DNA of 19,026 bases from Promethearchaeota archaeon (GTDB lineage Archaea > Asgardarchaeota > Lokiarchaeia > Sigyniarchaeales > SOKP01). The notes beneath the pieces were generated by a model. That model ran no database searches. It was given only the letters and a program-made list of their open reading frames with translations, and was not told the DNA's origin. Shown in pieces: positions 2,325-19,026 of this stretch (position 1 is the stretch's first letter; each line of letters starts with the position of its first letter). The stretch covers positions 1-19,026 of the forward strand of contig JAHLWS010000050.1 in the NCBI GenBank assembly GCA_019057795.1, read 5' to 3'. The position numbers were made by a program, and so were the translations under genes.

Positions 2325-2739
2325 AAGATTAAAAAAGTCTATTAAATAGACCCTCTCCAATGTCCTAAATGTAAGGGTTAGATGAAAGTCATTGGTTCTA
2401 TTACTAATTACTCTATGGTAGACAGAATCATTAATCACCTCAAGCTCACATTTATAGCAGAAAGACTACCTCCACGGCAACCCCCTCACCAGCGGCTTGA
2501 TATAGTAGCTTAGGAGAAAAGTGAATATTTCTGATAACTGAAAATGATTATCGCTCTTGGGGGTAAGTCTATATTATCCTGAGTTTTTTTCTTAGTTATC
2601 TATCTATTTGTAATTTTTTATTTATTTTCTGTGTTTGACAATCACTTTTTGTTGTGATATGTAATATAGAGCAGGTAAAATGATGAAATTTATAGGGAAA
2701 AATGAGGAAAATTGTGACAAAACCAAAAAAAATTCCTAT
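2325..2739 (+). mobile_element. IS91/ISCR-family (Y2 rolling-circle) transposase 3' remnant with oriIS-like end
   Basis: 2328-2534 translates to IKKVY*IDPLQCPKCKG*MKVIGSITNYSMVDRIINHLKL...PP, the CxxC-containing C-terminus typical of this family, with three in-frame stops. The element ends in AAATTCCTAT (2730-2739), like the TTCCTAT oriIS ends of IS91/ISCR. Confidence 0.7.
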
Positions 2740-2923
2740 AAATTTTAGAAATAAAACGACTAGAATATTTTCAAAAATTCTTTTAGATTATCTTTTTTAA
2801 TTTTAAATATTAATGTCATTGAAGATAACTACAACCTAAGAAAAGATAGTTTAAAACTCTTGCATATAAAATATAAATAGCTAGCGAGTTAAATCGAAGG
2901 TCTTTAAATTATGGAGAAGAAAA

Positions 2924-3712
2924 ATGTATCCTAAAATTTACATTGATTTATTTAGATCGTTTGATAGGACGCCAGAAGTATTTGTGGCAATGCCATTTTC
3001 TGAAGAATTTGAGCCACGATGGAAATCAATTTTTAAACCAGCCATCAAATCCTACAATTTAAAACCATATCGTGTTAAAGAACGCTTGGTTGGTGATTCG
3101 ATTCCAATCGATATTTTAAATGGACTTAATAGAGCAAAATTCTTGCTATTTGATATATCAAATGAAAAAACGGGAAAACCAAATTCAAATGTAATGTATG
3201 AATTAGGTATTGCTCACGCTACTCGGTTGCCAGAAGAAGTCATTATTGTCCGAGATGAACAATCTAAAGACATTCCTTTCGATATTAAGCATATTAGATG
3301 GAACAACTTTTCTCCCCAAAAAATTGACCAATCAGTGGGCAAAATAAAAAACCTTATTAAAAAGGCTGAAAAGGAGGTTGATTTAACTAAAGATTTATTG
3401 ATCCAAAAAACTCTGAACTCACTAGACCAAGATATGATGGGTTTCTTAGAGACTGTTCGAAATTTTACCGAAACAGGTTTTGACTTATACCCATTTGATC
3501 CAGATGGTAAGGGTCTTTATGGTCTACCTAATAAAGATTGTAGTGAAGAATATTTACTAGAACTCGCACGAAGCCTTATTAATCTTGGAATTATTAGAGG
3601 TGCAGAACCGCTTCCCTTACAGGAAAGGTTCTATGGAGTAACTCCTGAATATCATTTTACAGAGCTTGGTAAAGCCATTCTGCCGAAAATACCTAAATTT
3701 TCAAAAACATGA
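2924..3712 (+). CDS. Nucleoside 2-deoxyribosyltransferase-like domain plus C-terminal winged-helix-like domain; candidate defence effector
   Basis: VFVAMPF...AIKS...RV...I...IL..LNRAKFLLFDIS....PNSNVMYELGIAHA...IPFDIKHIR. C-terminal LINLGII...YHFTELGKAIL. RBS GGAG. Confidence 0.7.
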   Translation: MYPKIYIDLFRSFDRTPEVFVAMPFSEEFEPRWKSIFKPAIKSYNLKPYRVKERLVGDSIPIDILNGLNRAKFLLFDISNEKTGKPNSNVMYELGIAHATRLPEEVIIVRDEQSKDIPFDIKHIRWNNFSPQKIDQSVGKIKNLIKKAEKEVDLTKDLLIQKTLNSLDQDMMGFLETVRNFTETGFDLYPFDPDGKGLYGLPNKDCSEEYLLELARSLINLGIIRGAEPLPLQERFYGVTPEYHFTELGKAILPKIPKFSKT

Positions 3713-3816
3713 AGAAGTGAGTCTTAGAATATAACCAATCATAAATTCTATATCATAGTCAGACCTAAAATTAAGTATCTTTTATTTTATCTTTCATTTC
3801 CCTAAATGGATTCGGA

Positions 3817-3842
3817 ATTTCATATAACACATTTTTAGGCGA
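3817..3842. other. attI-like tyrosine-recombinase simple site
   Basis: Plus strand ATTTCATATAA-cacattt-TTAGGCGA. Minus strand reads GCCTAAA-AATGT-GTTATAT (L box, 5 nt, R box). Confidence 0.45.
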
Positions 3843-4073
3843 GGTATACCTAATGTCCAAGTTTATTTCCTCCTTTGTTCCCATAATTGTTTGATATATC
3901 AGGTATGTAGTGGTCCTAATTTATAGTTAGTCTCTTGAGGAAATTTTAAAATTCTCATATTTGTCTAGATAATACATTTTAAAATAATGGAAAGGAAAGA
4001 CTTGGAACTAAGCCATTAAGTTATTAAGTATTATGAGTTTTAACCTATTTTTTAATACTCCTACAACATTTAT

Positions 4074-4304
4074 TTGGATTTAAATAGAGTCAAGAATTTA
4101 CCAATCGTAGCAGTTGATCCAGATATTATTCCTTTATATTCAATAGTAGAAATAGAAAATCTGGGGGCTTTTATAGCATTAGATACAGATGGACTTATAA
4201 AGGGAAATAGAATTGATATTCTTTTTCCAACAAAAAAAGAAGCTATAAATTTTGGAATTAAAAAAGAAAGGGTAAGAATCATTAAGAAAGGTATTTGTAA
4301 TTAA
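4074..4304 (+). pseudogene. 3D (Asp-Asp-Asp) domain protein, probably N-terminally truncated; phage-type
   Basis: VAVDPDIIPLYS...ALDTDGLIKGNRIDI...AINFG. The usual N-terminal part is missing and DTGG appears as DTDG. Confidence 0.7.
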
Positions 4305-4372
4305 CACCAGTTTAAAGTTAACGGTATGTTAACACGCATCTTTAGATAGTGTCAATAGTAGATTAACTAAAT

Positions 4373-4627
4373 ATGAGTAAAAACTTGAAAAGAACCAAAA
4401 AATATGCAATTTTAATAATACGAAAAGAGAGAGGAATTTCACAACAAGAACCAGCTGACAAGCTAAATATTAATAGAGCTTTAATATCCCAAATAGAAAC
4501 AGGCTTTGTTTTACCAAACTTTGATACTTTATTAAATATAGCAAGAATACTCAATTGTCTAATAACTGATCTATATCGAAAAGAAGAAATTAATTTCATT
4601 AAAGAAATAAGAAATAAGGAGGATTAA
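4373..4627 (+). CDS. Cro/XRE-family helix-turn-helix regulator, possibly degenerate
   Basis: IRKERGISQQEPADKLNINRALISQIETG...P..DTL..IA..L. Pro occupies the usual QxEL-A leucine position. Confidence 0.8.
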   Translation: MSKNLKRTKKYAILIIRKERGISQQEPADKLNINRALISQIETGFVLPNFDTLLNIARILNCLITDLYRKEEINFIKEIRNKED

Positions 4628-5232
4628 ATACCTATATCACAAAAGGTAGGTTTAGATTATTTTCCATTAGATACTGATATGGAGAAAGACGATAAAATTA
4701 CTTGAATAGAAGCTAAATATGGGATTGTGGGTTTCGGTGTAATTATAAAACTATTTAAAAAAACCTATCATAGTGATGGCTATTATTGTAATTGGAATGA
4801 GGAAATACAATTACTCTTTTCTAAAAAATAGGAGTTGATTTTGAGAAAGTTATAGAAATTGTAAATGATGCAATTAAATGGAATTTATTTGATAACAAAT
4901 TATTTAAAAAACATAAAATACTTACTTCTAAGCGAATACAAAAAACATATATTAGTGTCACATATAGAAGAAAGAAAGTAGAAATTATAAAAGAATATAT
5001 AGTAAATGGAATAAATGATTACATAAATAAAGTAAATGTATACATAAAATCAATAAATGATAGCAATAATAAACAAAGTAAAGTAAAGAATAAATATATA
5101 CATATTTTAAATTTTTGGAACTTAAAAGAAATAATGAAACATAGACCATTAAAGCCAATTCTTAAACAAATAAAAATGGCTTATAAGAAACATGGAAAAG
5201 ATAAGATAATTAAAGCTATTGAAAATTGCTAA
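4628..5232 (+). pseudogene. DUF4373 (Lin1244/Lin1753-like) phage replication initiator, disrupted
   Basis: RBS AAGGAGG then ATA. Translates to GLDYFPLDTD...KI.*IEAKYG..GFGVIIKL...GYYCNW. TGA at 4703-4705 and a frameshift in the A-run at about 4823-4828. Continues LFD...ILTSKRIQKTY...QSKVK. Confidence 0.8.
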
Positions 5233-5335
5233 ACAATCTAAAAGAAGCCCTTTTTTTCTTAATTTATCGTGCTAAACAACCATAGCAGAGATAATATTTC
5301 TCCTGGCTCTTTTTATATATCGGAGGTTATTGTAT

Positions 5336-5483
5336 ATGTCATCAAATAAACCATCCCCACCCTGTAGATATCCCCTATGCCCAGAGCTTCAATATATTTT
5401 AGGTCACAAATATCTATCTTCTATACAGATTACACCCATATATAGCCTAAAGATCTACATAAAAAGCTAAGGAAGGATAAATA
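5336..5483 (+). pseudogene. Chimeric relic: phage HNH-endonuclease N-terminus joined to a tyrosine recombinase C-terminus
   Basis: GGAGG RBS, then MSSNKPSPPCRYPLCPEL (like the MPxKPxRPCxxPGCPxL start of phage HNH proteins) running into QYILGHKYLSSIQI-(frameshift)-YTHI*PKDL (integrase LGH...TQIYTH box). Confidence 0.5.
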
Positions 5484-5644
5484 AGAAAAGAAAGATGAAG
5501 ACTTAAAAAATTTAGTAGATCAACTGATTGAACAACAGAAACTAACTATGAAAGTCTTGGAAGCTATTACTGAAAGAATAAATAAGTAATTTATAAAAAT
5601 ATATTGTTAAATAGCTTTAACAAAAGATATATTCTTACTAAAAT

Positions 5645-5668
5645 ATTTCATATAAAAATAGTTAGGCG
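5645..5668 (+). other. attI-like site, start of the GIY-YIG gene cassette
   Basis: ATTTCATATAA-aaata-GTTAGGCG. GTTAGGCG (5661) complements, with one mismatch, the R'' box CGTCTAAC (6232) after the gene. The spacer is 1 nt shorter than in the other copies. Confidence 0.6.
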
Positions 5669-5683
5669 ATATTTTGTTTAGAG

Positions 5684-6181
5684 GTGAATACTAAGATGAA
5701 TAGACACAATCAAGTGAATTGTTGCGAGGATCTTTTTACCGAATTCAAGTTTCAGGATTTGCGAAGTGCTTCTCCACCAAATAAAAGGGGAGTATATGTT
5801 TTACGAGTCAAAAAAGAGGGCAGTTCTGTAAAAGAAATAGTTGAGCAACTAAAACAGCTTGTACAAAATCTTAACTGGACATTAGTTGAAAATTATATTC
5901 TTAATCGTATCAGCCGCCTTGAAAAGATAAATCAATGTCCAATAATATACATTGGTGCTGCAGGAACTCACAAAGACAGCAAAAATACTCTGAAAGGACG
6001 GTATAAAGAATTTTCTATGCGTCATACAGTAATGTATCCTATTTGGGCTTTGCTTTATTTTGGTTGGGAATTGGAATTTGGATGGAGGGAAGAAGATGAC
6101 CCAGGAAATGTGGAAAGTCAATTAAAACAAAAATATATAGAAAGACATAAAAATAAATTACCAGCTTTGGTTAAACAATGA
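5684..6181 (+). CDS. GIY-YIG-superfamily nuclease-like protein carried on an integron cassette
   Basis: GVYVL...IIYIGAAG...LKGRY...VESQL..KY...LP. Bounded by an attI-like site and an attC. Confidence 0.65.
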   Translation: MNTKMNRHNQVNCCEDLFTEFKFQDLRSASPPNKRGVYVLRVKKEGSSVKEIVEQLKQLVQNLNWTLVENYILNRISRLEKINQCPIIYIGAAGTHKDSKNTLKGRYKEFSMRHTVMYPIWALLYFGWELEFGWREEDDPGNVESQLKQKYIERHKNKLPALVKQ

Positions 6182-6231
6182 TGAAATACAAAACAAAATG
6201 CTGCCCCCTTACGGGACTTGCACTAACTGGT

Positions 6232-6314
6232 CGTCTAACACAGCATATATGGCTCTCTTCGTTAACCCAAATTTCAGCTTCGCCAAAACCTCGTATATAC
6301 TGAAAGCGTTATAT
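6232..6314 (+). other. attC integron cassette recombination site
   Basis: R'' CGTCTAAC, L'' region CAGCATATATG (6241), L' region CGTATATACTG (6292), R' GTTATAT (6308). Imperfect palindrome of 83 bp, 50 bp after the stop codon. Confidence 0.75.
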
Positions 6315-6416
6315 GAAATTTATATAGAAATAAGTCGATGCAATAATAAGAAGAGAAAAAAATACAGGATCAATAGTTACATAAAAGCAAGATTGAAATA
6401 ATAGAGAGTATCACAA

Positions 6417-6779
6417 ATGGAAAAACCAAGATATTTTTGTCAAGAATGTAATAAAGAATTAGAACCAGATCAGAAAGTGTGTCCGGTTTGTAAAAGTAGT
6501 AAACGTCTAATAAAGAAGAAATTAGAGGGAGAAATTAAACCAAGAGGCAGTATTGGAGCGAAACAGAAACGAAAAGGTTTTAAGAGACCTCTAAAAGAGA
6601 TTATTAAGGGTTGGTTTGAAAGCGGAGACAAAAAGAAACATCCTAAAGATGTTATAAAAGAAAGGGTAATTGATAGAGAAAAAGATATATATGAAGAAAA
6701 AGTAGTTGATATAAAAACAGGTAAAACTACTCGCGATATTAAAGAACCGCTAAGTAAACATGGGACAAAGAGGAAATAG
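6417..6779 (+). CDS. Zinc-ribbon-containing hypothetical protein
   Basis: CQEC...CPVC at the N-terminus, basic central part, C-terminal RVIDREKDIYEEKVVD...TG...EPLSKH. Lies directly after the attC. Confidence 0.7.
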   Translation: MEKPRYFCQECNKELEPDQKVCPVCKSSKRLIKKKLEGEIKPRGSIGAKQKRKGFKRPLKEIIKGWFESGDKKKHPKDVIKERVIDREKDIYEEKVVDIKTGKTTRDIKEPLSKHGTKRK

Positions 6780-6838
6780 AGAAGATTAAAAATAAATGAT
6801 TCATTTATTGATTTTTATTTTAGTATAATTATTTTATT

Positions 6839-8086
6839 ATGGGCCCAATTATTATATTTGATAAATCTACTTTACAAAGCCTGAGTGTTGATGAGTCTTG
6901 TTGGCTTGAAAATTTCTTCTTAACCAACTTAACGCCAATATTTTTTATTGAGTGTTTGGCAGATTTAGAAAAACTAATAAAAGGGAACAAGACGCCTCAA
7001 CAAATGGTTTATGAATTAGCGTTAAAAACACCCCAAAGTTGGTCTTATCCAAATGTATACCATCATAGATTAATAGTTGGCGATTTACTTGGTTACAAGA
7101 CTGAAATGTCAAACCGCCCCATTATAAGAGGTGGTAAATTTAAGGTCACAACTAATGGAAGACTAGGTGTTCATTTTAATCAATTTCCAGAAGCAGAAGT
7201 TATGCAAAGATGGCAAAATATGGAATTCTTGGAAATCGAGCATAGTATTGCTAAAGAATGGAGACAATCGCTATCAAATATCAGCTTTGATAGTTTTACA
7301 GGTTTGGTAAAAAATATTATCCCACAAGGAAAGAGGTTTAAAAGCCTAGAGGAGATAAAGAATTTTGTTGACTCTTTTGTCAAAGGAGACTATAAAGATC
7401 GTCTCCATTTGGCTTTCAAAATTTTGGGAATTCCTTCTCAATTTCAATTTCATATAATAAATAGATGGCTATATGAGAAATGCCCAACCCTAAATGATTT
7501 TGCTCCTTATGCTTCTTATGTGCTAAAAGTTGATTTGTTCTTTTATCTTAGCTTGTTATCAAATTTAATCTCTGGAGATAGACCAAGCAATAAGATAGAT
7601 TTAGCCTATCTTTACTATCTTCCCTTTTGTATGGTTTTTACATCAAATGACAAACTTCATAATAAAACAGCACCTCTTTTTATGGAAAAGGGGCAAGTTT
7701 TTATTAATGGTCAAGATCTAAAATCTAACCTAAGGGTGCTAGATGATTATTATTCAAAATTTCCTGATGAGGTCAAGGATCAAGGTATAATGAAATTTGC
7801 TGTTTATCCTCCAGAGAATATAGACAATTTGGTATCGCAACTTTGGGATAAGTTTTTACCAATTTGGCGAAAACACCTAGAAGAAAAAAAATCCAAGCCC
7901 CAATTGTCTGAGAAGTCTGAAAAAGAGTTGATCCAGAGTCTTAGAAGAGATCTGAATGAGTCAATTCTTTTAGATATGTCTGTACAAGCTACAACAAATG
8001 AGGCTGACCACGTTGTATTTAAAAGAGAGGTTAGAACAAAAAAAGGGAAATGGAGAATTTTACCGCCGGAAGTTGAAAAAAAATAA
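6839..8086 (+). CDS. Hypothetical protein, probable PIN-like fold
   Basis: N-terminal IIIFDKS, E in FFIECLAD and late NKIDLAYL..LPFCMVFTSNDK match the order of PIN acidic residues. Confidence 0.55.
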   Translation: MGPIIIFDKSTLQSLSVDESCWLENFFLTNLTPIFFIECLADLEKLIKGNKTPQQMVYELALKTPQSWSYPNVYHHRLIVGDLLGYKTEMSNRPIIRGGKFKVTTNGRLGVHFNQFPEAEVMQRWQNMEFLEIEHSIAKEWRQSLSNISFDSFTGLVKNIIPQGKRFKSLEEIKNFVDSFVKGDYKDRLHLAFKILGIPSQFQFHIINRWLYEKCPTLNDFAPYASYVLKVDLFFYLSLLSNLISGDRPSNKIDLAYLYYLPFCMVFTSNDKLHNKTAPLFMEKGQVFINGQDLKSNLRVLDDYYSKFPDEVKDQGIMKFAVYPPENIDNLVSQLWDKFLPIWRKHLEEKKSKPQLSEKSEKELIQSLRRDLNESILLDMSVQATTNEADHVVFKREVRTKKGKWRILPPEVEKK

Positions 8087-12766: not shown

Positions 12767-14305
12767 ATGAAAGCAATAATACTTGCCAGAGTATCAACAA
12801 AAGAACAAAAAGAATTAGGTCATTCTTTACCTGCCCAAGTTATAAAACTTAAAGAATATGCACAAAAAAAAGGTTTTGAAGTTATAAAAGTATTTTCATT
12901 TTCTGAAACTGCTGGAAAAAAGATAAGAAAAAGATTTGAAGAGGTAAAAAAATATTTTAGGAAAAATAAGGATGTCAAAGTTCTTCTAGCTCAAAATGTG
13001 GATAGAGCAACAAGAAATTTTAGGGATGCAGTTGATTTAGATGATATGAGAATAAATGAAGGACTTGAAATACACTTTGTTCAAGATGGCTTTTATATTA
13101 ATGCTGAATCAACAGGAAGCCAGCTATTTATGTGGGAAGCAAAAGTATTTTTGGCAAAGCAATATATAAATAGATTATCTGATGATGTTAAAAGAAGCAT
13201 TGAGCAGAAAATTAGAAATGGTGAATGGACAAGCAAAGCACCAATAGGCTATTTAAATGTAAAAGATGAGATAACTGGCAAAAATACAATTATTTTAGAT
13301 AAAAAAAGATCATTTCTAATAAGAAAAGCTTTTGAAGAATATTCTACTGGCATTTACTCATTAAAAGAGATTACATCTAATTTAAAAAAATACGGACTAA
13401 GAGCAAACACAAAAAGTAATAAACCATTACATAAAAGTGCTGTTTATAAAATGATAAATAATCCTTTTTACTATGGTTATATGAGAATAAAGAATAAGCT
13501 ATACCCTCATAAATATGAGCCAATTATAACTAAATATCTATTTGATAAATGTCAAGAAGTAATTAATAGCTATTCTAAAAAACCATTTAAGTATTCTGCA
13601 AAACCATTCATATTTAGAGGTCTCATTAAATGTGCTTATTGTGGATGCACAATTAGCTCAGATAAAAAGAAGAACAAATATATTTACTTATCATGTTCGA
13701 AGTATAAAGGTAATTGCGACTCGATAAGAGTTAGAGAAGAAGTTATCCTAGAGCAAATAAAAGATATTTTTGAAAATATCCAAATCCCAAAAAGAATATT
13801 AGAAGATGTTAGAGAGTATCTAATTAAGACAAATGATTCTAAAAGGAAATTTCAAAAATGCGAAGAAAAACAAATACGCGAAGAATATAATAAAATTCAA
13901 AGAAAACTAGATAGATTACTTGATATGGAACTTAATGAGAGTATTACTCAAGATGAGTATGATAAAAAAGCCTATCAATTAAAGCAAAGACAATATGAAT
14001 TAAATGAAAGACAAAAACAATATATAGAAGCAGATGAAGAGTTCTCTTTTACGCTCATAAACCTTATGGAATTAGCCTCTAGAGCCTATGAATTATTTGA
14101 ATTTTCGAAAGTAGAACAAAAAAGAAAACTAATAAATTTCGTACTTTCGAACTTAAAATTAAAGGGTAAAACATTAGAATTTGAGCCTAGAAAACCCTTT
14201 AATGTCTTCATAAATCTTAAAAATGCTAAAAACCGTTCTGTTTGGCTGGGGAGAGAGGACTCGAACCTCTGCTTGTGGATCCAAAGTCCACCGTCCTACC
14301 ACTAG
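12767..14305 (+). CDS. Large serine recombinase (resolvase, recombinase, zinc ribbon and coiled-coil domains)
   Basis: ARVSTKEQ with catalytic Ser10, DRATRN, APIGY, NPFYYG, FRGLIKCAYCG...YLSC...C. RBS AAGGAG. Confidence 0.95.
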   Translation: MKAIILARVSTKEQKELGHSLPAQVIKLKEYAQKKGFEVIKVFSFSETAGKKIRKRFEEVKKYFRKNKDVKVLLAQNVDRATRNFRDAVDLDDMRINEGLEIHFVQDGFYINAESTGSQLFMWEAKVFLAKQYINRLSDDVKRSIEQKIRNGEWTSKAPIGYLNVKDEITGKNTIILDKKRSFLIRKAFEEYSTGIYSLKEITSNLKKYGLRANTKSNKPLHKSAVYKMINNPFYYGYMRIKNKLYPHKYEPIITKYLFDKCQEVINSYSKKPFKYSAKPFIFRGLIKCAYCGCTISSDKKKNKYIYLSCSKYKGNCDSIRVREEVILEQIKDIFENIQIPKRILEDVREYLIKTNDSKRKFQKCEEKQIREEYNKIQRKLDRLLDMELNESITQDEYDKKAYQLKQRQYELNERQKQYIEADEEFSFTLINLMELASRAYELFEFSKVEQKRKLINFVLSNLKLKGKTLEFEPRKPFNVFINLKNAKNRSVWLGREDSNLCLWIQSPPSYH

Positions 14306-14316
14306 ACGACTCCCCA
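14243..14316 (-). tRNA. tRNA-Gln (anticodon TTG), CCA encoded
   Basis: Reverse complement TGGGGAGTCGTCTAGTGGTAGGACGGTGGACTTTGGATCCACAAGCAGAGGTTCGAGTCCTCTCTCCCCAGCCA folds as a cloverleaf. Anticodon at 14284-14282, T-loop GGTTCGAGTCC. Confidence 0.97.
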
Positions 14317-15443: not shown

Positions 15444-15671
15444 TCACGGTTGCCAAGTGGGGCTACCATCAGACGCAGGGTTGTTCGTTAACCTAGTCTG
15501 TTGCGAGCCATCAGAATTCATTACGTAGATTTCAGCGTTGCCATCGCGTCCGGAGATGAAGGCAATACGACTTCTAATAGATGGTTTTTCTGGAACACAA
15601 CTAACTATTAAAATAATCGCAATCACCAACACCACGAAGAGTGTCAAAACTCTTAAATTTTTTGTGTTCAT
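15444..15671 (-). CDS. Short lipoprotein with one TolB/PD40-like repeat; first cassette of the left platform
   Basis: Signal peptide with lipobox IVSC, then [34 protein letters not shown]. Confidence 0.7.
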
Positions 15672-15763
15672 CTTTATTATGATTTATTATCTAATTTCTT
15701 GCGAAATAATTTGATTCCGACCTTTAAATATTTTACCTTTTTCAAGGTGAGGTTCGGAACTTC

Positions 15764-15791
15764 AAATAACTCGGTTTTATACGAAATGTTT
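15764..15791 (-). other. attI-like site of the left integron platform
   Basis: Minus strand aaacATTTCGTATAAA-ACCGA-GTTATTT. The crossover G (15770) is 115 bp from the relic integrase start. Confidence 0.7.
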
Positions 15792-15884
15792 TCTTTATAA
15801 CAACACTAACTTATATATTATACAGAATATATAAAAATTATCTTATAGTTTAAACTGTTTAAATTTTAACAAATCCATAAAATT

Positions 15885-15950
15885 ATATAAAATTATCTGA
15901 AACAAATCGAAATAGAGTTAAAACTTAGAAATTACAGCTTAAAAACTATC
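15885..15950 (+). pseudogene. 5' stub of an integron-type tyrosine integrase
   Basis: ATA TAA AAT TAT, translating as (I*)NYLKQIEIELKLRNYSLKTI. Homologous to QKQLNQTEKELRLRNYSPKTV of the relic at 16961. Confidence 0.7.
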
Positions 15951-16314
15951 GGAAAGGTGGAAGGGAGTTAAAACCATACTTTGTATATCAAAAATGCTCT
16001 ATAGGTAAGGTTCTATTTACATTTAATTCAACCTAAACCATAAAAGGCATAGAAAAATAAAGACAGGTAATCTAATATTAATCCAATGTGGGAGTTAAAC
16101 CCCACTCCCATAATTTAGCAATAACATTGTCTACCATAGTATATATTTTTAGTAAATATTTATATAAATACGTATACATTTCAGTAGTTTTGTATATATT
16201 TTTATATTGACAAAAAATAAAAAATTTATGTATCTGAGAGAGAGGTAAAAGTTATCTGATAATAACGCGATGGTGCAACCCTTTTAATAGTATGATATTA
16301 AAAACTATCATATT

Positions 16315-16342
16315 AAACATTTCATATAAAAATTAGTTAAGT
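16315..16342 (+). other. Orphan attI-like simple site
   Basis: aaacATTTCATATAAA-AATTA-GTTAAGT. Shares the upstream AAACA with the two integrase-linked sites. Confidence 0.55.
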
Positions 16343-16434
16343 AAAATTGCAGTTTTTTAACTAAAAGGGGAGATTATATAGAGATATAAAATTATTTTTT
16401 ATTAGAATGGTAACCAATATAGGGAGATGAAAAA

Positions 16435-16515
16435 ATGAAAAGTAAAAAAAAGAAAAAGTTAGATAGACTAAGACATAGAAAACGAGAAAAAAAGAAAAGA
16501 AAAGGTAAAAAATGA
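16435..16515 (+). CDS. 26-aa Lys/Arg-rich peptide
   Basis: MKSKKKKKLDRLRHRKREKKKRKGKK with GGGAG upstream. Confidence 0.3.
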   Translation: MKSKKKKKLDRLRHRKREKKKRKGKK

Positions 16516-16580
16516 ATAAAAAAATATTTATTTATTTTTATAAAAAGGGGTATAGGGGTATAAATACCTGTGGCTTTCAC

Positions 16581-16961
16581 TCCATAGGCTAGCGAAAGTA
16601 AAAGTTTATGTTTTGTGTTCTTAGTTGCCTTTATTACTTTTTCAATTTCGTTCCTTGAGAGAATGACCGGAAGTTTCTTTTTTCTCTTTGCAGACCGTAT
16701 ATCGATCTTTTGGTTTGTTTTTATAACATTGCGGTAGAAAAACTTTATTGCGTTTAAGAATAGATTGTGTGTTTGGGCAGAAGCACCATCTTTTTGTTTT
16801 TGAAGTAGAAAATCTTTAATGTTTTCAATATCCAAAACTTCAAGACGCCGCTTTTTAAAGTTAAAATATTCCTCGAGAGCGTAAAGATAGCTTTTAACTG
16901 TTTTAGGACTATAGTTGCGAAGCCTGAGTTCCTTTTCTGTTTGATTTAGTTGCTTTTGTAT
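16581..16961 (-). pseudogene. Truncated integron-type tyrosine integrase (SAM-like N-terminal domain; catalytic domain lost)
   Basis: The frame extends up to ATA at 16961: QKQLNQTEKELRLRNYSPKTVKSY...SAQTHNLFLNAIKFFY...KKLPVILSRNEI...KHKLLLSLAYG. It breaks just before the catalytic GLR. The rest of ORF 16392-16580 is read-through. Confidence 0.85.
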
Positions 16962-17054
16962 AATCGGAAAAAATTTGTTAAAGTTAAAACAACTATGTAA
17001 AATATTAGTTTAACAGATTTTTGTATAACACACAATTAAGACATAAAATTGCGA

Positions 17055-17087
17055 AAACAGTTCGTATAAAAACGAGTTATACGAAAT
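17055..17087 (+). other. attI-like site of the right integron platform
   Basis: aaacagTTCGTATAAA-AACGA-GTTATACGAA. The crossover G (17076) is 115 bp from the relic integrase start. Confidence 0.75.
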
Positions 17088-17132
17088 AAAATGTCTGCAT
17101 GAAAGAGGTATTATATAGATATTATTTTAATT

Positions 17133-17672
17133 ATGTTTATTGCATTTGGATTAGCAATGGATGCTTTCGCTGTATCTATCACAAGTGGATTAACAATTAA
17201 ATCCTTGAAAATTAATAATGCTTTAAGGATTGCAATATTTTTTGGGTTATTTCAGGCGATTATGCCATTAATTGGGTGGTTAGCAGGACTTAGCTTCCGA
17301 GATTTTATTTCAGGCGTTGACCATTGGATAGCTTTTGGACTTCTAAGCATAATAGGCTGTAAAATGATTTATGAATCATCTAAAATGGAGTTAAGCAACA
17401 AGAGAATAAATCCGCTGAATGTTTATGTTCTGCTGATGTTATCTTTTGCAACAAGTATCGATGCTTTGGCTGTTGGTTTAAGCCTATCATTCTTAAACGT
17501 TTCCATTGCACTACCTGCAATAATAATTGGAATTGTAACATTTTTACTATCGATTTTTGGTGTTTATCTTGGTAATAGATTTGGACACTATTTTGAAAGA
17601 AAAATCGAAATAATCGGTGGTTTAATTTTAATTGGTATTGGAATAAAAATATTAATTGAGCACTTAACCTAA
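17133..17672 (+). CDS. mntP: Manganese efflux pump MntP family protein (cassette 1)
   Basis: GLAMDAFAVS, FGLFQAIMP, DHWIAF, ATSIDALAVG, EIIGGLILIGIG. The RBS-aligned start is ATA at 17115. Confidence 0.93.
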   Translation: MFIAFGLAMDAFAVSITSGLTIKSLKINNALRIAIFFGLFQAIMPLIGWLAGLSFRDFISGVDHWIAFGLLSIIGCKMIYESSKMELSNKRINPLNVYVLLMLSFATSIDALAVGLSLSFLNVSIALPAIIIGIVTFLLSIFGVYLGNRFGHYFERKIEIIGGLILIGIGIKILIEHLT

Positions 17673-17689
17673 AGGGCGACAGTTTAGAT

Positions 17690-17781
17690 CATATAACACG
17701 GTGTATGCGGTTCGGGTTAATGACCTTACTGAAATGCTCAGCTTTGCCTCGCACTTCGCATATACCCAGAACATTATACGC
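17690..17781 (+). other. attC site with R' mutated from GTT to ATT
   Basis: R'' CATATAAC, L'' GGTGTATGCG, L' CGCATATACC, R' ATTATACGC. Starts 17 bp after the mntP stop. Confidence 0.75.
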
Positions 17782-17831
17782 AAGCGGCTTCGTGACACCA
17801 AAATAAGAAAATTTAAAAATAGTAAACAATT

Positions 17832-18464
17832 ATGATAGGTGATAAGAAAATGAACAAACAAATATTTCTAAAATGGCTTAAAATTAACAGTTTATGTTTC
17901 ATAGGTGCCTTTATTGCAGTATTCCTTTTGGTCCAATTATTTCCCAATATCATGCTCGGATTTCTAGGAGGATGGACTACTTTAATAGAGATGACAGGAG
18001 CTAAGAAGATGGCAGAACTTCCTTCCAGGTTTGATGCATTCATTCATACACTTTCCAGAAACAGCGTCTCGATCATTATTGTTTTTATCACTGCACTACT
18101 CTTGCAGGCACCAATTTTGATGGTAGTGTTTGGTTCATTCTATTCTCTTATAGCTTTTCTTGCCCCGCTAACGATTGGAAAAACATTCGCTCTTTTCGAT
18201 TGGATTCTAATTGCAACCGAAGCACTTTTCTTTATTGTAACTGCCACTTTTGCATCAACTCTTGCTACGGAAGTATTTGGAGTAAAACCAGAGAAAAAAC
18301 AGATATTAGAGTATTGGAAAAAAAATTGGAAGAAGTTACTTCCTGAGCAAAAAAGAAGTTGGAGGATTGTGTTCAAAGAAAACATGAAAGAATTTACCTT
18401 TTTCATCATAATAATTTTAGCATTACTCATATTTGGAGCATGTTTTGAAGTTTGGGGTTATTGA
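17832..18464 (+). CDS. Integral membrane protein, SpoIIM (DUF95)-like (cassette 2)
   Basis: Several hydrophobic helices, FIH...RN, a mid-helix Glu and C-terminal LLIFGACFEV. Likely start at 17850 after AGGTGA. Confidence 0.55.
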   Translation: MIGDKKMNKQIFLKWLKINSLCFIGAFIAVFLLVQLFPNIMLGFLGGWTTLIEMTGAKKMAELPSRFDAFIHTLSRNSVSIIIVFITALLLQAPILMVVFGSFYSLIAFLAPLTIGKTFALFDWILIATEALFFIVTATFASTLATEVFGVKPEKKQILEYWKKNWKKLLPEQKRSWRIVFKENMKEFTFFIIIILALLIFGACFEVWGY

Positions 18465-18536
18465 AATGGAAAGAAGTCAAATGGTGTCCCTTCGCTGACT
18501 CTTCGGAATGCTTCGCATTCCTTTTCCCTATCGGGA

Positions 18537-18560
18537 GCGTATAACATCGGAAGTATGGGA
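18537..18560 (+). other. Collapsed attC remnant
   Basis: R'' GCGTATAAC complements the cassette 2 start (G)TTATACGC. The internal arms are missing. Confidence 0.5.
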
Positions 18561-18637
18561 ACAATTTCCAAATTTGCTTCGTCTAAAATGTAATTATTAT
18601 TATTAACCCAATACTTAACTCATAAGGAGGTTCAGAA

Positions 18638-19026
18638 ATATCGAAAAAGCTGGAAGAGCGCATGAACGTAATCGCTGTGTTGCTAGCAGTTTTGGTTCTA
18701 CTAGCTAACTGCAGACCTCCAGGAGAGATCAAGCTGGACGCTGGTAACAATGGCAGCCAGATCGAGATTGAGCAAGGTCAAATCCTGGTCATTACATTGG
18801 AGGCTAATCCCACTACTGGTTATACGTGGGAAATGATCGAAGGCGAGGAACAAATCCTGCAGCAAGTAGGAGAAATTGAGTTTCAACCGGATTCTAAGTT
18901 AATAGGCGCTCCAGGTATACAGACCCTGCGTTTAGAGGCTGTTAATGTAGGAAAGATAACTCTCAAATTGATATACCACCGACCCTGGGAAGAGAATGTG
19001 GACCCACTAGAAACCTTCTCTGTCCA
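18638..19026 (+). CDS. Protease inhibitor I42 (chagasin family) lipoprotein, running off the window end
   Basis: NPTTGYTW, IGAPG and YHRPWE motifs; lipobox LANC. AAGGAGG precedes ATA at 18638, with an in-frame ATG at 18662. Confidence 0.88.
   Translation, partial: MSKKLEERMNVIAVLLAVLVLLANCRPPGEIKLDAGNNGSQIEIEQGQILVITLEANPTTGYTWEMIEGEEQILQQVGEIEFQPDSKLIGAPGIQTLRLEAVNVGKITLKLIYHRPWEENVDPLETFSV

Follow-up and report, generated by a model that had tools for sequence, protein, structure and literature searches.

Probable twin relics of a Xer-type, integron-like gene-cassette platform on a contig from an Asgard archaeal genome bin

The DNA analyzed here (the window) is the entire 19,026-base contig C50 (JAHLWS010000050.1), which belongs to a 4.95-Mb genome bin assigned to a Promethearchaeota archaeon. 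Near its right end, the window contains two convergent copies of one module, located at 15759–15950 on the plus strand and at 17087–16578 on the minus strand, and each module consists of a core site, a 115-nucleotide (nt) leader, and the 5′ end of a tyrosine recombinase gene. This locus very probably represents two pseudogenized heads, arranged tail to tail, of a Xer-type, integron-like gene-cassette platform. The twin modules are flanked by a cut-short open reading frame (ORF) for a lipoprotein (15671–15444, minus strand) and by mntP (17133–17672, plus strand). The features of the locus are as follows.

15444–15671, minus strand: truncated lipoprotein/PD40-like ORF of 75 amino acids, from the ORF list and the sequence; the nearest ORF on the outer side of the left site
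15759–15787, plus strand: left attI-like core site with the arms TTCAAATAA and TTATACGAA and a 7-nt spacer (site matrix, 25.6 bits)
15788–15884, plus strand: left leader, colinear with five outside homologues
15885–15950, plus strand: left recombinase relic of 22 codons (tblastn, E 0.016; colinear DNA alignment)
16319–16347, minus strand: third core site, isolated, simple, and degenerate (site matrix, 20.2 bits)
16578–16961, minus strand: right recombinase relic of 128 codons, with an N-terminal SAM-like domain (Pfam PF13495, E 2.6e-14)
16962–17058, minus strand: right leader, from the homologue alignment, with the third arm TTATACAAA at about 17020–17029
17059–17087, minus strand: right attI-like core site, near the consensus TTCGTATAA-N7-TTATACGAA (41.3 bits)
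17076–17785, plus strand: mntP gene cassette (PF02659, E 6.6e-55; 92% nucleotide identity to positions 4222–4859 of locus L106)
17832–18640, plus strand: candidate second cassette, tentative, with a 210-amino-acid membrane ORF (17832–18464) and a partial attC-like sequence

The two modules were recovered as an inverted repeat. A repeat finder returned the arm pairs 15761–15827/17019–17085 (67 nt, 72%) and 15856–15874/16973–16991 (19 nt, 89%), and in a gapped alignment the similarity extended some 190 nt from either outer end toward the center, into the coding starts. Both arms were colinear with the upstream region and the first 25 or so codons of five outside homologues. The spacing was 115 bp in both copies, from the C of ATAAC at 15770 to 15885 on the left and from 16961 to the G at 17076 on the right. 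Homology, site scores, and spacing all agree with an earlier interpretation made from the letters of this DNA (the sequence-only reading), which had recognized two recombinase 5′ remnants, each 115 nt from an attI-like site. The outer arm of the left core site is degenerate. The leader of each copy bears a further TTATAC-type arm, taken as a third binding arm for the recombinase, and that of the left leader, TTATACAGAA at about 15818–15827, has decayed. The third core site is oriented as the right site, with no leader or gene relic adjoining it. The crossover is predicted to fall at C15770 in the left site (G|TT on the opposite strand) and at G17076|TT in the right site.

The remains of the recombinase genes were delimited by tblastn with a full-length homologue. 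The right relic (16961–16578, minus strand) was matched over 128 codons with 78% identity (E 1e-61) and the left relic (15897–15950, plus strand) over 18 residues (E 0.016), and this search gave no further recombinase match in the window. The start codon is ATA in both copies and ATG in the homologues, and codon 2 of the left copy is TAA. The right relic, 78–81% identical to homologues of 270 amino acids, has an open frame with no internal stop; its homology stops past LAYG, directly ahead of the AGLRVSE motif that carries the first catalytic Arg. Neither a C-terminal half nor any other piece of the gene was found in the window or in the 4.95-Mb bin. Both recombinase genes are dead, and no functional R-K-H-R-H-Y recombinase stands beside the array: the right relic ends before the first catalytic Arg, and the left one comprises 22 codons.

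Core sites were scored with a 29-nt matrix built from the core sites of 50 homologue loci. The right site, the left site, 16319–16347, and 3817–3845 scored 41.3, 25.6, 20.2, and 20.6 bits, respectively, and shuffled windows gave a 95th percentile of 9.4 bits and a maximum of 15. At least 16 bits was reached at only four positions of the 4.95-Mb bin, all four of them inside the window, so that four core sites of the family lie within 13.3 kb. The third site that had been noticed between the heads is real by this measure, its 20.2 bits being above the shuffle maximum of 15. The sites at 17059–17087 and 15759–15787 are attI-like in that they lie 115 nt from divergent starts and carry a GTT-type crossover box. 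The fourth core site (3817–3845, plus strand) has the outer flank GGATTCGGAATTTCATATAAC, like that of the left head and of locus L004, and no leader or recombinase debris was seen beside it; at neither 3817 nor 16319 did recombinase debris adjoin the site, even at E 50. A sigma-70 promoter scan of 15650–17200 gave 14 matches against 9.7 ± 3.4 expected, which is at chance level, and the idea that the alignment of the two copies defines promoter elements was not borne out. Rfam returned only a tRNA in the window and only tRNAs in the homologue loci.

The right relic had 450 significant longer homologues, nearly all of 269–272 amino acids and 60–81% identical over the relic. They occur mostly in Patescibacteria, of many classes, and also in Omnitrophota and in one metagenome-assembled genome of Humimicrobiaceae, a family that we take to belong to Atribacterota. 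Across these distant lineages the recombinases of the family are 60–85% identical. The docking site was found at the upstream position in 65 of 83 homologue loci, with two inverted arms of 9–11 bp around a 7-bp spacer, and the distance from crossover to start had its mode at 115–116 nt (25 of the 65 loci). Nine contigs (L008, L015, L018, L023, L034, L045, L069, L072, and L083) start, by their first bases, within 0–5 nt of the docking-site AACT, about 115 nt upstream of the recombinase start. Contigs would begin at AACT because the assembler breaks where the DNA beyond the crossover varies in the sample, and these starts suggest variable partners at the crossover within the sampled population.

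The class of the enzyme was examined in the full-length relatives. The IntI-specific additional domain defines IntI, and IntegronFinder searches for that domain (PMC9668308). Four full-length relatives (P0003, P0005, P0008, and P0065) scored 220.7–225.1 bits with the XerA model NF040815, a marginal pass of its cut-off of 220, and 213–224 with the integron integrase model TIGR02249, whose cut-off is 265 and which was matched in two stretches. The best sequence match in the PDB was VchIntIA (2A3V; E 8.5e-45), aligned in two blocks between which the family has 28 residues and VchIntIA has 71, and the alignment with Pyrococcus abyssi XerA (4A8E) was colinear (E 2.8e-42). The full-length relatives thus lack the IntI-specific insertion, which makes the protein a XerA-like enzyme and not an integron integrase by the definition of the field. 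The sequence-only reading had held that the insertion could not be checked, the catalytic domains being gone; it could be checked in the relatives, where it was absent.

The loci of the full-length homologues are associated with cassette arrays. Among the ORFs upstream of the docking site, 70 of 80 face outward, as does the first ORF in 31 of 32 loci, and the ORFs downstream of the recombinase gene are split 22 to 36. The outward ORFs have unrelated functions, mostly with one gene per cassette, and behind each array ORF comes an imperfect palindrome, about 90–150 nt long. The order of its elements is ..cATATAAC, L″, variable hairpins around a conserved CCCAAAT, L′, AAC, and GTTAnnnGAAAT. Single-strand folds of two such attC-type sites gave z-scores of −5.7 and −4.7 against shuffles. 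Over 18 aligned sites the two stems were 94.7% paired, compared with 20–46% in slid controls, a percentage inflated by the prior choice of sites for L″/L′ complementarity, which does not inflate the compensatory changes. Stem covariation was 0.466 versus 0.117 in shuffles, none of 500 shuffles reached it, and eight pairs had changed on both sides. A covariance model made from attC-type sites found 72 sites at E ≤ 0.001 in 83 loci, 54 of them outside the training set, and all 72 lie on the outward strand on the docking-site side of the gene. The closest full-length homologues, at loci L001, L004, and L005, all carry attC-type sites upstream, and the cassette association of this family thereby stood.

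Two observations on cassette structure were made in these arrays. A GC-rich element with GAGCGnAGCG repeats follows the stop codon and precedes the R″ box in many cassettes of different lineages, always on one strand (for example, L009 2096–2230, L016 2060–2100, L025 1810–1880, L037 2040–2075, and L054 1440–1490). Successive cassettes in one array also open with an identical sequence of about 70 nt that contains a hairpin and follows the crossover (GTTAGCCAAC..GTTGGCCAAC), as at L047 1020–1090 and 2830–2900 and at L036 450–510 and 1800–1860; this opening may be a common 5′ element of cassettes.

In the window itself, the mntP unit qualifies as a true cassette of the Xer-type platform, because its boundary at G17076|TTA is common with that in L106, where the attC is intact (51.7 bits). 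The homology with L106 starts exactly at 17076, the G of GTTATACGAAAT, which is also the predicted crossover of the right site. Behind the mntP ORF (17133–17672; ancestral start 17115) lies an attC-type site at 17689–17785 (29.1 bits, E 1.4e-4) with a good R″ (CATATAAC) and L″ and with R′ mutated to ATTATAC. The gene occurs at 86–93% identity in four unrelated contexts. All three ORFs to the right of the right site face outward, and the right head still heads an array, with mntP first. Past the 210-amino-acid ORF, the model match at 18537–18640 was not significant (12.6 bits, E 1.2); about 18537–18575 resembles the 5′ half of an attC (TATAAC ... CCAAATT). A change of start was observed in mntP: the ancestral ATG of L106, L107, and L109 is ATA in the window, and six codons on, the ATA of the relatives is ATG in the window, which gives a protein of 179 instead of 185 amino acids.

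Without filtering, the covariance model gave two significant attC-type sites in the window, 6231–6320 and 17689–17785, both on the plus strand. Only this model told real attC-type sites apart in the window; a plain search for TAAC and palindromes returned nine matches against 4.2 ± 2.7, not above chance. The site at 6231–6320 is the strongest of the window (57.5 bits, E 2.6e-11, with a model from Patescibacteria sites). It lies directly behind a GIY-YIG-like ORF (5684–6181), and this cassette is oriented as the right array, unlike the left head. The lipoprotein/PD40-like ORF beside the left head is oriented as expected of a cassette, but no attC follows it. The proposal that cassettes run outward in both directions thus held for the right side, with mntP, the G|TTA boundary, and the 29-bit attC, and failed for the left side, where no attC was found on the outward strand.

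Arrays of the same kind were seen in two loci that carry mntP. In L106, the region 3930–6600, between topoisomerase VI and the class I lysyl-tRNA synthetase, holds an array of three attC-type sites with mntP first, the C-terminal 60 or so codons of another tyrosine recombinase on the same strand as the cassettes, and a cluster of TTCGGATAT-type arms. In L107, the region 2690–7520 holds a plus-strand array with three attC-type sites (34–46 bits) ahead of an Atribacterota-like mntP, and a weak docking-like site at 2686–2729 has no adjoining recombinase gene. CALINs are clusters of attC sites without an integrase (Cury 2016, Neron 2022, Ghaly 2022). L107 looks like a CALIN-like array of the Xer-type platform; the right array, L107, and L106 all resemble CALINs in that their cassettes have attC-type sites and a working integrase is missing from their vicinity. 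The window differs from CALINs in that the remains of a platform head are visible, which mark the cognate enzyme as Xer-type and not IntI.

The contig looks bacterial and was probably mis-binned in the Asgard genome, because it has a bacterial-type tRNA-Gln and an Atribacterota-like mntP and because no close recombinase homologue was found among 60 Asgard relatives, where the search returned only their own Xer of about 315 amino acids at 28–36% identity. The tRNA-Gln(UUG) gene at 14243–14316 has U1-A72, G73, and an encoded CCA, a combination that we take to be of bacterial type, and the other tRNA-Gln of the bin (contig C79) starts A1-U72. The best named relatives of the MntP protein are from Atribacterota (85–88% identity), and L107, with an array of the same kind, is a bacterial contig (SmpB, Rho, L31). 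The estimated contamination of the bin is 7.5%. Tetranucleotide composition was not decisive for binning, the contig being the 20th lowest of 87 (r 0.986 versus a median of 0.996). A large serine recombinase gene (12767–14305; Resolvase, Recombinase, and zinc ribbon) extends on the opposite strand into the tRNA-Gln gene, and the AT-rich DNA on its left side probably represents an integrated element distinct from the cassette system.

L106 is of archaeal origin, from a Methanosarcinales-like chromosome, its topoisomerase VI-B being 68–69% identical to Methanoperedens proteins. Since C50 is of bacterial type and L106 is archaeal, the same mntP cassette is present in bacterial-type and archaeal DNA. 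Movement of cassettes between the domains is suggested because mntP is 92% DNA-identical in the bacterial-type contig and in L106, with the boundary at G|TTA. We tentatively propose, as a possibility that falls short of being probable, that Xer-type platforms are also at work in archaea and in Atribacterota-type bacteria and carry cassettes from one domain to the other, the right site being live and served in trans.

In the relatives, the intact platform consists of a XerA-like tyrosine recombinase of 270 amino acids encoded divergently from its docking site. Circular cassettes of one gene, each with a folded R″-L″...L′-R′ site, would enter at the docking site with a crossover at G|TT, and inserted cassettes would accumulate in a single orientation. 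The right head would be the younger relic, having an open frame, a near-consensus site, and an array still present, and the left head the older one, left without recognizable cassettes. The locus is now a fossil, and any rearrangement in it would depend on a family recombinase provided in trans.

Several points weigh against this interpretation. The crossover is placed solely by homology breaks and contig ends. The degenerate attC of mntP folds no better than shuffles on either strand (z −0.13), and the covariance model gave no attC-type site on the outward (minus) strand to the left of 15759. The choice of sites described above bears on the pairing of the stems. The window also holds no catalytic domain that could speak to activity at this locus.

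Comparison was made with integrons, namely the IntI/attI/attC system, the sedentary array of Vibrio cholerae with VchIntIA (PDB 2A3V), and archaeal integrons (Ghaly et al. 2022, PMC9668308). The family shares with them a tyrosine recombinase divergent from a docking site whose crossover box is of the GTT type, one-way arrays of mostly single-ORF cassettes that end in an imperfect palindrome of the order R″(..TAAC)-L″...L′-R′(GTTA..), and, in this palindrome, unpaired bases and co-varying stems. It differs in that the recombinase has 270 amino acids and no IntI-specific additional domain, the docking site combines a third arm with a symmetric, dif-like core, and the attC-type sites have a conserved CCCAAAT center and a GAAAT tail; in the window, furthermore, the enzyme gene has been destroyed twice. 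The locus is an integron-like relic and falls outside the strict definition of an integron, which rests on the IntI domain; the relatives were examined for this domain and do not have it. The suggestion of an uncharacterized integron class accordingly survives in part: the literature searched gave no account of an integron-like platform that uses a Xer-type recombinase, and the term integron does not strictly apply.

An origin in chromosome-dimer resolution was considered improbable. The locus would then be a decayed module of the XerA type, with dif beside the gene as in XerS/difSL and XerH/difH, that was duplicated and inverted by a rearrangement of the terminus. In the known Xer/dif systems, dimer resolution takes place at one site. 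The family resembles archaeal XerA/dif (P. abyssi 4A8E; Thermoplasma 5HXY) in protein length and in its colinear architecture, the alignment with archaeal XerA being colinear and the homologues barely passing the NCBIfam XerA equivalog cut-off. The core is also dif-like and resembles those of XerS/difSL and XerH/difH, with two inverted arms ending ATAA and TTAT, a short spacer of 6–8 bp, and a position near the gene. Unlike Xer/dif sites, however, the family site always faces one-way cassette arrays with folded sites (72 of 72 matches), and its partners at the crossover are variable, with contigs that break there. A recombinase identity of 60–85% across distant lineages is more in keeping with a mobile system than with a housekeeping one, no switch in GC skew is seen at the locus, and the expectation of a single dif per replicon is at odds with four family sites within 13.3 kb.

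A similarly low probability was given to movement of the 1.3-kb segment 15770–17076 as a block between its inverted sites, in the manner of a pdif module. The pdif modules of Acinetobacter plasmids use the host XerC/XerD and 28-bp sites, with no folded sites or recombinase heads. Simple Xer-type sites inverted around a DNA segment are common to those modules and to the present locus, where two inverted core sites bracket the segment and the flanks on either side open with GTTA-type half sites. However, the repeat here consists of two gene heads, since the inverted arms include the 115-nt leader and coding sequence; the arrangement does not recur in 85 homologue loci or elsewhere in the bin, and fusing the two flanks gives no normal core with spacer.

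Inversion of the segment by a recombinase supplied in trans, which would make it a DNA switch, was judged less probable still. The near-consensus right site (41 bits) and the arrays without an adjoining recombinase in Atribacterota-type contigs (L107) make action in trans conceivable, but the outer arm of the left site is degenerate and the segment holds only gene debris, with a promoter signal at chance level. An assembly artefact, in which a chimeric or fold-back join makes the mirror image, was rated equally remote: although the contig is metagenome-assembled, from a bin with the contamination given above, and family contigs often break at the docking site, the arms are only 56–75% identical, too little for a collapsed or fold-back copy of one sequence, and each arm joins different unique DNA.

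The relationship of the two heads bears on how the twin arose. In the joint alignment they are 56% identical to each other, and either is 55–66% identical to the outside homologues. A fold-back misassembly is unlikely on this comparison, because the similarity between the heads does not exceed that with outside homologues. The sequence-only reading had seen a bidirectional integron locus. Such a design is not indicated, because the heads resemble each other no more than unrelated family members do (56%) and no twin occurs in the 85 other loci, where no second or inverted family gene was found and only two frameshifted genes were seen. As judged from these alignments, the tail-to-tail heads of the Xer-type platform most likely go back either to two separate acquisitions or to an ancient duplication, with decay afterwards.

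In themselves, the dead twin heads hold modest interest. The window shows that the platform or its remains occur outside Patescibacteria, and it provides a cassette boundary that maps the crossover to G|TT and a cassette that is also present in an archaeal chromosome. A contig with a bacterial-type tRNA-Gln in an Asgard bin calls for caution with claims of Asgard integrons; if cassettes do move between the domains as tentatively proposed, part of the reported "integron enrichment" of Asgard bins could reflect such arrays or mis-binned contigs. We infer that tools keyed to IntI would miss Xer-type platforms and list their arrays as integrase-less clusters. In the integron field, the extra domain of IntI is held to be necessary for recognizing folded attC sites. 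A family without this domain that is tied, in hundreds of loci, to an attI-like site, attC-like hairpins, and one-way arrays bears on the origin of integrons from Xer-type enzymes.

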